The notes under the pieces: generated by a model
Told to the model about the DNA's origin: nothing
The model's database searches: none
Seen by the model: only the letters and a program-made list of their open reading frames with translations
Source of the DNA: Bacilli bacterium
Lineage (GTDB): Bacteria > Bacillota_I > Bacilli_A > RF39 > UBA660
Length of the DNA: 32,000 bases
Direction: 5' to 3'
Assembly (NCBI GenBank): GCA_017442305.1
Contig: JAFRZY010000006.1
Location: forward strand, 95,880-127,879
Part shown: positions 28,831 through 32,000 of the stretch, piece by piece
Numbering within the stretch: position 1 is the first letter of the stretch
Layout of the letters: each line of letters begins with the position of its first letter
Program-made: the position numbers and the translations under genes

Positions 28831-29970
28831 TTAATTATAAGTTTCTGTAAGTGATGCTTTAAAACTTTTACTGTCCGCAATATTTAAATACCCGTTATAG
28901 TTTTTTATAATTTCTAAACAATCTTCATTATTCTTATTAGCTTTTTTTAAGCGTTTTTTTATTCTTTTTTTTGTTTTAGCGCTAAGTAAAATATGTAATC
29001 TTTTATTCTTTAACAAAAATTTATACCCTAAAAACGGTAATCCTGATTCTAAATCATATATTTGAGTTTTATTATTAATTTTTAATTTATATTTTTTTAC
29101 TTCCTCTTCAATTGCTACTATACATTTTCTTAAAAAATCTTTATTCGGATCTATTATAACTAAATCATCCATATAACGTATATAATATTTTGCATGCAAC
29201 TTTTCCTTTATAAAATGGTCTAAATCATTCAAATAATATATTGCTAAAATTTGACTAGTCATATTCCCAATGGGCAATCCCTTGCCTTTAACATAATATG
29301 GAATGTTGTTTAACTCAGAAATCTTTAGCTTTTTCTCATTATTGCTAATTTTCATATTCATAACTGCTTTTTTTTGCTTAATTATAGTATTATAAATAAT
29401 ATTATTTACATAATCTTCATCAGTACTTTTAATCATGTTTTTTATTAATGCATATATTTCTTGATCAGCTATTAAACTTTTTAACTTATCAAGTAATATT
29501 TCATGATCAATAGAATAAAAAAACTTTTCTATATCGCATTTTAAAGCATAAATTTTTTGATTTTTATTTTTTAATTTATTAACATATTTTAAAAGATAGT
29601 TTATTGCTTCTTTAGTTCCTTTATTTTTTCTAGTTGCAACATTTGTATTAATAAGCTGAGGTTCAATAAGTGGAAATAATACATATTTACTTATTAGATG
29701 ATTAACAACTTTATCTACCATACATTCGCTCATTATTATACGTTTTTTTGGCTTAGTAATAAGAAAAATATTATATTTACTATGTTTATACGTTCTAGTT
29801 TCCAACAAATTATAAACATTGGTTAAATTACTACTAAAAAATAATTCAAATTTAAATAATTTATCTTTATTCTTTGTGTGTTTTCTTATTAAGAAATACA
29901 TTAGTTTAATTTTATTAATATCAATTAAATCAGTGTAATTAATCTGATTTTTGGTTTCTGAGAATTCCAT
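28831..29970 (-). CDS. DGR reverse transcriptase
   Basis: 379 aa. Motifs are LKCDIEKFFYSIDH (motifs 1-2), LPIGNMTSQILAIYYLNDLDHF (the (I/L/V)GxxxSQ motif 4 characteristic of DGR RTs), YIRYMDDLVII (YMDD at 29164-29175) and PFLGYKF. There are no maturase or endonuclease domains. The start overlaps avd by 32 nt. Confidence 0.9.
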   Translation of the reverse strand: MEFSETKNQINYTDLIDINKIKLMYFLIRKHTKNKDKLFKFELFFSSNLTNVYNLLETRTYKHSKYNIFLITKPKKRIIMSECMVDKVVNHLISKYVLFPLIEPQLINTNVATRKNKGTKEAINYLLKYVNKLKNKNQKIYALKCDIEKFFYSIDHEILLDKLKSLIADQEIYALIKNMIKSTDEDYVNNIIYNTIIKQKKAVMNMKISNNEKKLKISELNNIPYYVKGKGLPIGNMTSQILAIYYLNDLDHFIKEKLHAKYYIRYMDDLVIIDPNKDFLRKCIVAIEEEVKKYKLKINNKTQIYDLESGLPFLGYKFLLKNKRLHILLSAKTKKRIKKRLKKANKNNEDCLEIIKNYNGYLNIADSKSFKASLTETYN

Positions 29971-30292
29971 ACGTTATTTTCCTTATTTCCACAATAAAAT
30001 TACTACTCGATGTATATTGTTTTTTACTTATAATCTTTTTTTCATAACTTACATTCATATAATAATCTAACATTGATAACTTTACTATAATATCTTTCAA
30101 ATATTTTTCCTTAATACGTTGATTAGTATTAATATTGTAAGAAAAAATTAATTCAACTAGAATATATAAATTTTTTTCAATTGAATCAATTAACACTCTT
30201 TCTTTATTCGGAAAATTTATTAGCAAACGATTTATATAAGCAGAAGTTTTTTTTGTATTATTTAAAAGATTAAAATTATAATTCATTGACAT
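29939..30292 (-). CDS. avd: DGR accessory variability determinant (Avd-like four-helix-bundle protein)
   Basis: 117 aa, helical and basic, placed immediately upstream of and overlapping the RT. FPNKERVLIDSIEKNLYILVELI resembles the FPK-E..L..Q...A motif of the Avd / 23S-rRNA-IVS protein family. Confidence 0.7.
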   Translation of the reverse strand: MSMNYNFNLLNNTKKTSAYINRLLINFPNKERVLIDSIEKNLYILVELIFSYNINTNQRIKEKYLKDIIVKLSMLDYYMNVSYEKKIISKKQYTSSSNFIVEIRKITYGILRNQKSD

Positions 30293-30701
30293 ACTCTAAA
30301 ATACGATGATAATTATGTTTATCAGCATCTATCTTATTACTAATTTGTTTAAATAAACTTGCAAGATCTTCTGCTTTTTTCATAGCCTTTAAGGCTTTTT
30401 TAATAACACTAATATAATTATTATTTTTATTAAATGTTGTTAAAAAATAACTATCTTTCTCTATTATAAGATAATCAATGTTTAAGGATTTTAATTTTAA
30501 TTTAATTTTTTCTGCAATTGAAATAGGAAACCCCACTCTATTGTCTATTATTTTATAGCCAAACAAATAATTCATCAAAGTAGCATCTTCTAAAAAAGTA
30601 TAGAAAAAATTACCTGAATGAATTAAAACTAGGGTTTCCTTATAATTATTTTTATATGATAAATATGTATTTGCTAATTTCACAGCAAAGTCTCCTTTCA
30701 T
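30276..30701 (-). CDS. MutS domain-I-like small protein (MSL-type DGR accessory ORF)
   Basis: 141 aa. KLANTYLSYKNNYKETLVLIHSGNFFYTFLEDATLMNYLFGYKI...RVGFPISIAEKIKLKLKSLNIDYLIIEKD aligns by eye to the MutS N-terminal mismatch-binding domain (MMQQYL..K..YPD.ILFFRMGDFYELF.DDA...L.I.LT...IPMAGVP......Y...L...G..VAICEQ). The true start may be GTG 30683, 8 nt after AAGGAG, because no RBS precedes the ATG at 30701. Confidence 0.6.
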   Translation of the reverse strand: MKGDFAVKLANTYLSYKNNYKETLVLIHSGNFFYTFLEDATLMNYLFGYKIIDNRVGFPISIAEKIKLKLKSLNIDYLIIEKDSYFLTTFNKNNNYISVIKKALKAMKKAEDLASLFKQISNKIDADKHNYHRILEYVNEL

Positions 30702-30717
30702 TTAAAATATAGCAATA

Positions 30718-30744
30718 GTCACATAACTAAAAAAGTTATGTGAC
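30718..30744 (-). ncRNA. perfect 10-bp hairpin in the TR-to-accessory-gene spacer (candidate structural element of the DGR RNA)
   Basis: gtcacataac (30718-30727), loop taaaaaa, gttatgtgac (30735-30744). It lies 17 nt upstream of the MSL ATG. No T-run follows on the minus strand, so it does not look like a terminator. Confidence 0.4.
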
Positions 30745-30902
30745 GTCTATATTTATATATTTAGGTAACTAATACTGCTCATTACCAGGGAATAATCTTG
30801 TTTCCAATCTAAATAGATTACTATATAAATAGTTACTTCCTCTCATTATAAGCCTTAACTTATAACCCTCAGAATTAGTAATTTACTAACATTAGTAGGA
30901 AT

Positions 30903-31018
30903 CTGGGCGCGCACCAGGGTTGTCATTGTTGACGTTGTTGTTGTTGACATTGCCATCGTTATTGACATACCACGCATTCGCATTGTCGTTGTCATCGTTG
31001 AAGTTATACGGAGCGGAA
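30903..31018 (-). repeat. DGR template repeat (TR)
   Basis: 116 nt homologous to 31177-31293. The coding-strand frame reads SAPYNFNDDNDNANAWYVNNDGNVNNNNVNNDNPGARP, with 15 Asn codons (10 AAC + 5 AAT). It is noncoding, since a stop follows 4 codons after the homology. It ends in the GC-rich CCCTGGTGCGCGCCCAG. Confidence 0.9.
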
Positions 31019-31057
31019 AAAAGCACGCTTTTATATAGACTATCCCCAAAATTCATT

Positions 31058-31081
31058 CCCAAAACGAAGAGTCGTTTTGGG
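31058..31081 (-). terminator. hairpin between target gene stop and TR (possible terminator of the target gene)
   Basis: 9-bp stem cccaaaacg / cgttttggg with a 6-nt loop. On the minus strand it is followed by AAUGAAUUUU, a weak U-tract. Confidence 0.4.
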
Positions 31082-31099
31082 AAATTATTTCTTATCTTT

Positions 31100-31345
31100 T
31101 TATTTTACTACAATGGTATATTCTGAACCTATCTGTCCATTTCCTTCAAACTGAACATCAGCTTTCAGATTGATAACTGGGCGCGCACCAGGGAAGTCAT
31201 AGTTGACGCTGTAGTTGCTGACATCGCCATCGTTACCGACAGACCACGCACTCGCATCGCCGTCGCCATCGTAGAAGTTAATGGGGAGCGGAAGTCCAAT
31301 ACATTTCATTGCTATACAGATAATATGTACTGTTGCCTGCCACAT
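31100..31345 (-). CDS. C-terminal, VR-containing fragment of the DGR target (variable) protein, in a different frame from the upstream part
   Basis: The frame encodes ...INFYDGDGDASAWSVGNDGDVSNYSVNYDFPGARPVINLKADVQFEGNGQIGSEYTIVVK*. This is homologous to the C-terminus of the paralog 8583..9899 (GVRPVINLKGNVTFTGNGRIDTNSPYEIVIE*). The annotated Met start is probably not real. Confidence 0.7.
   Translation of the reverse strand: MWQATVHIICIAMKCIGLPLPINFYDGDGDASAWSVGNDGDVSNYSVNYDFPGARPVINLKADVQFEGNGQIGSEYTIVVK
31177..31293 (-). repeat. DGR variable repeat (VR) at the 3-prime end of the target gene
   Basis: 117 nt aligned to TR with an offset of +274. In the core (31194-31273) there are 16 mismatches, all at positions where the TR coding strand has A. 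The shared GC-rich 17-mer at the 3-prime end (31177-31193) is a candidate IMH core. Confidence 0.9.
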
Positions 31346-32000
31346 TATTTCCTCCTGCTAAATATGCTTCATCTGCTGTTAATAAACCAACCGGATTTGA
31401 TAATAACCCATTTCCTAATGATTCACTTGTTGTATATCTATCACTTTTATTTGCGCATGTTAATTCTGGTGCTTTATTATCTCCTAATCTGCCCATTGGG
31501 CCATAATATTCATTTGTATATACTGCAGCATTTGGATCTGTTGTTACTGACCAATCTTCATTTAAATATTCATACTTATATATTTCTCTATCGTTGCAGA
31601 AAATAGAGTCTGCTATATATTTTTCATAATTCTCTTTTAAGTGTTCTTCATACCAATCATCTACTACACTTTTAATTGTACTATCTGTTTCAACACCATT
31701 TACATCATAAGTATATCCTACATATTTTGCTTCGTTATAATCTGTGTTATATGCTGTATTTGCTATTGTTGCTGTATGAGAAACTCCATTTTCTACAGGT
31801 GATGTCCCATCATAAATCATACGAATTGTTCCATCACCATTAATTCTAACAATTCGCCAATACATTGGTGTTCCTGACGCCACTTCAACTTCTTTTGTTG
31901 TCCAATTATTATAATCATATACTGTCAACGTTGTATCTTTCGCATATGTTCCAAATTTGACATAGTTGTTGGTTGGTGCTCCTCTAAAGTAATAACTAAT
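31278..32000 (-). CDS. N-terminal/central part of the DGR target protein (5-prime end lies beyond the window; terminated by TAA inside the VR 5-prime edge)
   Basis: The frame is open to position 32000 (..SYYFRGAPTNNYVKFGTYAKD.. upstream of the ORF-track Met). It is about 84% identical to paralog 8583..9899 across MYWRI..CNDREI. It ends ...EMYWTSAPH*, where the paralog continues YWTSSPSS... Confidence 0.75.
   Translation of the reverse strand: MSYYFRGAPTNNYVKFGTYAKDTTLTVYDYNNWTTKEVEVASGTPMYWRIVRINGDGTIRMIYDGTSPVENGVSHTATIANTAYNTDYNEAKYVGYTYDVNGVETDSTIKSVVDDWYEEHLKENYEKYIADSIFCNDREIYKYEYLNEDWSVTTDPNAAVYTNEYYGPMGRLGDNKAPELTCANKSDRYTTSESLGNGLLSNPVGLLTADEAYLAGGNNVAGNSTYYLYSNEMYWTSAPH

Follow-up and report, generated by a model that had tools for sequence, protein, structure and literature searches.

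The last 3.2 kb of the window (i.e. the whole stretch of 32,000 nucleotides that was analysed) contain a complete diversity-generating retroelement (DGR) on the minus strand, arranged in the order target gene with variable repeat (VR), template repeat (TR), MSL (MutS-like) accessory gene, avd and reverse transcriptase (RT), with RT, TR and VR lying within 2.5 kb on the same strand. The RT gene (28831..29970, minus strand, 379 aa) was identified by Pfam RVT_1 (3.8e-21) as well as by NCBIfam matches, and avd, the accessory variability determinant (29939..30292, minus strand), by Pfam bAvd (3.7e-10) and NCBIfam DivGenRetAVD (1.4e-10); the two genes overlap by 32 nt. Comparison of TR and VR places the former at 30903..31018 (minus strand), where its GC-rich 3' end reads CCCTGGTGCGCGCCCAG (30903-30919), and the latter at 31177..31293 (minus strand), at the 3' end of the target gene. 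The two are 84% identical and 16 of their 19 differences sit at TR adenines, which is the signature of a DGR and the reason for regarding the element as bona fide.

Only the 3' part of the target gene lies in the window (31100..32000, minus strand), with its stop at 31100 and the remainder running beyond the window end. As assembled, the gene is frameshifted at the 5' edge of VR (window 31270-31300), where VR has one extra base compared to TR (CCCCATTAAC in VR, CCGTATAAC in TR), such that one frame stops at '...EMYWTSAPH*' while the VR-encoded C-terminus ('LPLPINFYDGDGDASAWSV...GARPVINLK...') is found in the next frame. In the orthologous loci L001-L003 the target is intact (638 aa), and the frameshift is either an assembly error of the MAG in a hypervariable region or the mark of a real pseudogene. 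Between the target gene stop and TR there is a strong terminator-like hairpin (31056..31083, minus strand). TR is separated from MSL by a non-coding spacer of 200 nt (30702..30902, minus strand) with a 9-11 bp hairpin at 30718-30744, and in this architecture the part played by the priming 'Sp' region in the DGR RNA of Bordetella may fall to it; no Rfam match was obtained anywhere in the window, the spacer included. Elsewhere the window carries housekeeping genes (lysyl-tRNA synthetase, Clp ATPase, Mur ligase, sortase and others), which means that the DGR is chromosomal, its host being an uncultured gut or rumen Bacilli bacterium. The gene following RT is that of a Zip transporter. An ORF6N-domain gene (PF10543), which is absent here, directly follows RT in several related MSL-type DGRs (L001 4600-5481, L002 4343-5224, L011 6854-7843).

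Between TR and avd, where the preliminary description had placed an ORF of 141 aa overlapping avd by 17 nt, such a frame is indeed present on the minus strand (30276-30701, from an ATG at 30701), and both its position and the 17-nt overlap of its 3' end with the avd start were reproduced from the coordinates. The part of that description that probably does not hold is the start codon. A Shine-Dalgarno sequence read from the DNA, AAAGGAGA (30691..30698, minus strand), overlaps the ATG codon at 30701 and is located 7 nt 5' of a GTG at 30683, which is also the position at which all full-length orthologues (12/12) begin. For these two reasons the true start is probably the GTG, giving a gene at 30276..30683 (minus strand) and a protein of 135 aa, to which all residue numbers below refer. 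A protein identical to it is annotated in a 'Bacilli bacterium' MAG.

Against MSL, Pfam MutS_I (PF01624) scores 24.9-25.1 bits (E=2.5e-5), above its gathering score of 20.6 and in agreement with the assignment first made by eye, while NCBIfam MutS gives a weak match (E=0.006). The Pfam match covers only positions 5-47 of the 113 in the profile, the remainder of the domain being shown by hhalign and by the fold. At the family level the match is far beyond chance, since 108 of 118 diverse MSL relatives are also matched by MutS_I (best 1.3e-10). When the profile of this 118-member family was searched against PDB sequences, only MutS, MSH6 and MSH3 were found; a single-sequence phmmer search of MSL against PDB returned noise only, such that the family profile is needed. 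Using hhalign, residues 4-76 of MSL align with residues 14-95 of E. coli MutS (probability 94.3%, E 1e-7), residues 12-87 of the latter sequence being confirmed by the output of the PDB profile search. The motif pairings proposed earlier recur in the profile alignment to E. coli MutS, i.e. SGNFFYTF with GDFYELF (the GxF(Y/F) core), EDA with DDA, VGFP with AGIP (the (A)G(F/V)P segment) and, in the hydrophobic strand, LIIEK with AICEQ.

The AlphaFold (AF2) model of MSL based on the 118-sequence alignment is of high quality (pLDDT 97.1, pTM 0.84); from 14 close orthologues a poor model resulted (pLDDT 48.5). Up to residue 82 the former model consists of a helix, two strands, a helix, a strand, a helix and two strands, after which residues 90-134 form a helix of 31 residues and one of 12 residues. 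All of the top 50 Foldseek matches in PDB are MutS or MutSbeta (domain I), with 79-88 aligned columns and an rmsd of 1.7-2.3 Å, and the superposition that had been suggested as a check thus returned the MutS domain I fold. From these Foldseek matches it follows that, in the predicted structure, residues 1-82 are a complete MutS domain I core, to which residues 83-135 are modelled as a family-specific addition in the form of a helical hairpin. Among predicted viral structures the best Foldseek matches come from uncultured phages (stand-alone 'MutS domain I' proteins) and from giant viruses (MutS7). Taking profile and fold together, there is very little doubt that residues 1-82 are genuinely homologous to MutS domain I and that the gene is the MSL accessory gene of the DGR.

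In MutS, F36 stacks on the mismatched base, this being the only role of the solvent-exposed residue, while E38 discriminates the mismatch and authorises repair. The MutS E38 mutants of Lebbink et al. 2006 reportedly bind mismatches yet do not support repair; 1wb9, 1wbb and 1wbd, which we take to be the structures from that work, are among the Foldseek PDB matches of the MSL model. The residues G24, F26, D33, Y43, F52-P53, L64, N88 and Y90 are near-invariant over the 118 MSL sequences. F26 aligns with the wedge Phe of MutS (F36) and is a Phe in 117 of the 118, so that the Phe of the Phe-X-Glu mismatch motif is retained, as had been noticed earlier. The Glu, on the other hand, is lost: the position equivalent to E38 (position 28) is variable over the 118 (Y19/E14/I14/R13/H9) and holds a Tyr in the window copy, again as originally described. 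The domain I part is mildly basic (family median pI 8.8). MutS domains II-V (connector, core/lever, clamp and ABC ATPase) are absent, MutS_I alone being detected, and what follows it (residues 83-135) is the helical hairpin, in line with the earlier remark that there is no ATPase or clamp. With an incomplete Phe-X-Glu motif and without MutS domains II to V, MSL is a domain homologue that stands outside the MutS family proper.

The MSL family is large. An exhaustive HMMER search yielded 555 clusters (50% identity) with a cut-off of E<=1e-3 and 91 with E<=1e-10, the length being 120-150 aa in nearly every case. Target, MSL, avd and RT are found together in all eight independent metagenome contexts (8/8), each with an adenine-specific TR/VR pair as well. 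The place of TR varies between contexts, TR either preceding MSL, following RT or lying between avd and RT, whereas the MSL-avd junction is constant, with an overlap of 8-20 nt in 7/7 called metagenome contexts irrespective of the TR position. Species genomes of GTDB were scanned for the MSL family by means of a family-specific degenerate DNA motif, giving at least 119 loci; of the matches listed, 117 encode MSL, and the hosts among them are nearly all uncultured gut or rumen Bacilli, 'Tenericutes' and Acholeplasmataceae, next to some Bacteroidota-labelled MAGs. An RT was found within the available sequence of 8 kb or less in 98 of these 117 listed MSL loci. In about 9 of the other 19 listed, the sequence stops no more than about 1 kb 3' of MSL; the remainder comprise an RT::MSL fusion at a contig end, a locus with an RT remnant, one with avd only and about 6 to 7 solitary MSL genes. 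MSL is thus located inside a DGR cassette in 99 of the ~108 assessable GTDB loci among the matches listed, in addition to the 8/8 metagenome contexts, and not mainly outside DGRs, which had been named at the outset as the observation that would speak against a DGR accessory gene.

With these data, the possibility that the open frame arose by chance, or is the fragment of a decayed gene, can be given a negligible probability. Long chance ORFs are admittedly less rare in an AT-rich window such as this one, and the neighbouring target gene is frameshifted as assembled, but 555 homologous clusters (E<=1e-3) with conserved length and motifs, a model with a pLDDT of 97, a strong Shine-Dalgarno sequence and conserved synteny together refute it. 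A phage origin of the MSL subfamily was considered as well and is unsupported: the MSL-family motif is absent from the 2.9 million IMG/VR contigs scanned, and tblastn of MSL against 50,697 phage genomes found nothing, from which it seems that the subfamily is cellular.

Two loci (L009 5001-7558, L010 1324-3881) have one DGR with two full-length MSL genes, of which one overlaps avd and the other abuts the start of RT, RT being on the strand opposite to avd. Solitary and intact-looking MSL genes are found, all on the minus strand, in L018 (5761-6141), L036 (5241-5600), L075 (4860-5213) and L081 (5658-6008). They directly follow DGR-target-like genes with C-termini of the form '...YWTxTP...GVRP...', the 3' ends of which are clearly GC-rich in three of the four (L018, L036 and L075), and no avd, RT or TR was found within 4.9-5.8 kb downstream of them. 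Two pairs were examined for trans-targeting by a DGR elsewhere in the same MAG. The genome of L036 does contain a full DGR (L135), but comparison of L135 with L036 turned up no TR with adenine-specific differences; for the L068/L053 pair, 19 of 27 differences are at TR adenines, the locus ending at a contig end. Such solitary target-MSL modules may represent either decayed DGRs or distant targets that carry an MSL of their own.

The MSL class is already present in the literature, as the preliminary description had stated for DGR surveys. Wu et al. 2018 (NAR 46:11, PMC5758913) list MSL as one of four classes of DGR accessory genes, present in 16 of 372 DGRs, among them that of Legionella, encoding proteins of 112-283 aa and defining their 'Architecture D'; it is invariably accompanied by avd and in no case by HRDC, and three RTs were reported to have weak MutS_I-like C-terminal extensions. 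The preprint of Macadangdang et al. 2024 (10.1101/2024.11.15.621889) contains Msl in the Bacteroides Bfr, Bth and Bun DGRs, with which the Bacteroidota-labelled MAGs in the family are consistent. The window gene belongs to the MSL class of Wu et al. 2018, as set by size, homology and cassette context in the published sense: it encodes 135 aa (published range 112-283 aa) with MutS_I, hhalign and Foldseek matches, its cassette has an RT and a TR/VR pair with adenine-specific differences, avd overlaps its 3' end, and no HRDC match was obtained among the cassette ORFs scanned. The window copy, from an uncultured Bacilli MAG, is outside the 2018 set. That the class exists in surveys was thus stated correctly; that it is rare is contradicted by the 555 clusters at 50% identity. 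The remark that it has no assigned function agrees with the literature searched for MSL with DGRs, in which none was assigned or tested.

Among DGR components, MSL alone has an evident connection to mismatches, and it touches on the questions of how adenine-mutagenised cDNA replaces VR and how the heteroduplex survives mismatch repair. In the mechanism proposed here, MSL would be made in step with Avd and RT and would travel with the Avd-RT-cDNA complex, its Phe wedge then binding the distorted, mismatch-dense heteroduplex of adenine-mutagenised cDNA with VR. Because the Glu, the ATPase and the MutL-recruiting parts are missing, MSL would sit on the mismatches without licensing repair or heteroduplex rejection, and would thereby keep host MutS from erasing the newly made VR sequence in an all-or-nothing fashion. 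Taken by itself, the notion that MSL shields the cDNA:VR heteroduplex from host MutS as a non-signalling mismatch-binding module is tentative and has rather less than even odds. As a whole, the identity of MSL together with this shielding mechanism is considered the best explanation, with a probability of roughly 0.45.

As far as can be told from the sequences, the presence of F26 in 117 of 118 relatives, the variability at position 28 and the mildly basic domain I part would all fit such a shield, and MSL appears to be translationally coupled to avd. A physical link between MSL and RT is moreover found in those elements in which MSL is fused to the C-terminus of RT. Points against a shield are that isolated domain I is, to our knowledge, not known to bind mismatches without the clamp domains of MutS, and that most DGRs manage without MSL. 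In addition, many of the host MAGs are labelled Tenericutes, Mycoplasma or Acholeplasmataceae, where mismatch repair may be missing.

Deletion of host mutS increased homing of a Bacteroides DGR that has no Msl by 5-10 fold, and resolution of the heteroduplex followed an all-or-nothing pattern (Macadangdang et al. 2024, 10.1101/2024.11.15.621889), and this restriction of DGR homing by host MutS lends indirect support to the idea of the preliminary description, plausible in itself, that the heteroduplex has to escape mismatch repair or be channelled through it. Against a shield stands a statement cited in PMC5758913, according to which the Bordetella phage DGR did not need MutS for homing. The heteroduplex, moreover, carries 15-45 mismatches and its repair is all-or-nothing, so that a simple coating would have to cover many sites. 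In line with the channelling named in the preliminary description and with the all-or-nothing resolution (10.1101/2024.11.15.621889), MSL could also recruit or redirect host mismatch repair, resolving the heteroduplex toward the cDNA strand. This is very improbable, since MSL does not have the connector and ATPase domains by which MutS signals to MutL, and since host MutS lowers homing rather than raising it (10.1101/2024.11.15.621889).

The fusions of RT with MSL fit a role in reverse transcription equally well, and such an RT-coupled role is the main rival to the shield. In P0033 and P0044 (about 506 aa, each adjoining avd) MSL is located at the RT C-terminus, and a further five RT::MSL fusions are found in the GTDB set among the matches listed. 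MSL could belong to the reverse-transcription complex as one of its subunits and work on the TR-RNA:cDNA hybrid, not on a DNA heteroduplex: located behind the thumb of RT, it would use its Phe wedge to stabilise A:N mispairs while the hybrid is being formed, allowing extension past misincorporations or retention of the mutagenised cDNA until hand-off. The fusion point directly after the thumb region agrees with this, as do the conserved wedge Phe, the constant company of avd (which MSL overlaps, and with which it is probably co-transcribed along with TR) and the MSL gene directly 5' of RT in L009 and L010. Yet RT and Avd of Bordetella alone reportedly perform adenine mutagenesis in vitro, MutS domain I is known for reading DNA duplexes and not RNA:DNA hybrids, and there are solitary target-MSL modules without a local RT. 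All in all, this role is regarded as unlikely, albeit less so than the others that compete with the shield.

A second, shorter and divergent MutS_I-like ORF (MSL2, about 95-150 aa) occurs in 30 of the 117 GTDB cassettes among the matches listed, either upstream of MSL or downstream of RT (e.g. L028 2914-3207, L038 2871-3194, L066 2214-2498, L096 6397-6702 and L107 1428-1874), with none in this window. MSL2 does not have the G-x-F wedge and the GFP strand, while the INY and N-x-Y motifs are kept, and in P0073 (225 aa) the two are joined as a tandem fusion, MSL2::MSL. That a paralogue without the Phe wedge is nevertheless retained in 30 cassettes (among the matches listed) would suit an exapted scaffold, i.e. 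a protein-protein or RNA adaptor among Avd, RT and the DGR RNA, or at the target site, which does not recognise mismatches at all. The loss of the mismatch-discriminating Glu points in the same direction, and so do conserved features of MSL itself that are absent from MutS (N88-x-Y90 and the C-terminal helical hairpin). However, the Phe that in MutS has a stacking role only is kept in 117 of 118 MSL proteins of the main type, and maintenance of the fold alone hardly explains F26, because its counterpart in MutS is solvent-exposed and does nothing but stack on the mismatched base. A scaffold role is consequently deemed quite unlikely.

Returning to the shield, the pairing of MSL with MSL2 brings to mind the MutS dimer, whose two domain I copies are used asymmetrically. 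By this analogy, MSL might be an anti-mismatch-repair factor encoded by the retroelement itself, which, as a homodimer here or as an asymmetric MSL-MSL2 pair elsewhere, would be delivered by Avd-RT and clamp the cDNA:VR heteroduplex. Such a dimer would mimic the two domain I copies of the MutS dimer and in this way block both recognition by host MutS and rejection of the heteroduplex. In this specific form the proposal is doubtful, and somewhat more so than shielding as such.

The hypothesis is sharpened by the near-invariance of the wedge Phe as opposed to the variable, repair-authorising Glu, by the RT fusions and the coupling to avd, and by the presence of a wedge-less paralogue in about a quarter of the cassettes (among the GTDB matches listed). 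Bacilli of gut and rumen commonly carry this class, with hundreds of clusters, and accordingly many candidates are available for biochemistry. If MSL blocks MutS, it could raise the efficiency of retron- or DGR-based genome editing without deletion of mutS. If the anti-mismatch-repair reading is true, MSL would be the first retroelement protein dedicated to evading MMR and would supply the missing step of mutagenic retrohoming.

Compared to the published MSL proteins of DGRs, the window protein is the same kind of small MutS homologue, encoded in a DGR cassette with avd and without an HRDC gene, although it is more basic (pI 9.3, versus a published mean of 7.2). With domain I of bacterial MutS and of eukaryotic MSH6 and MSH3 it shares the fold, the core motifs (G-x-F-Y, D-A, G-[FI]-P and the hydrophobic strand before E-[KQ]) and the wedge Phe, which likewise is at the tip of a beta-hairpin. 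It differs from them in standing alone and in not conserving the Glu of Phe-X-Glu. Furthermore, a loop of nine residues in E. coli MutS (R58-I66) is missing, whereas the C-terminal helical hairpin is an addition, with N88-x-Y90, at the start of its long helix, having no counterpart in MutS. The viral proteins that consist of 'MutS domain I' alone, from uncultured phages as well as giant viruses (BFVD A0A8S5PL02, A0A8S5L9N2, A0A8S5PPT8 and A0A1V0SJ64; 74-153 aa) have the same fold, but their identity to MSL is only 18-23%. Like Avd and HRDC, MSL is a small, in its case putatively nucleic-acid-binding helper encoded beside a DGR RT, while its fold is unrelated to either of them, Avd being a pentamer of four-helix bundles and HRDC a helical domain; it accompanies Avd rather than replacing it.
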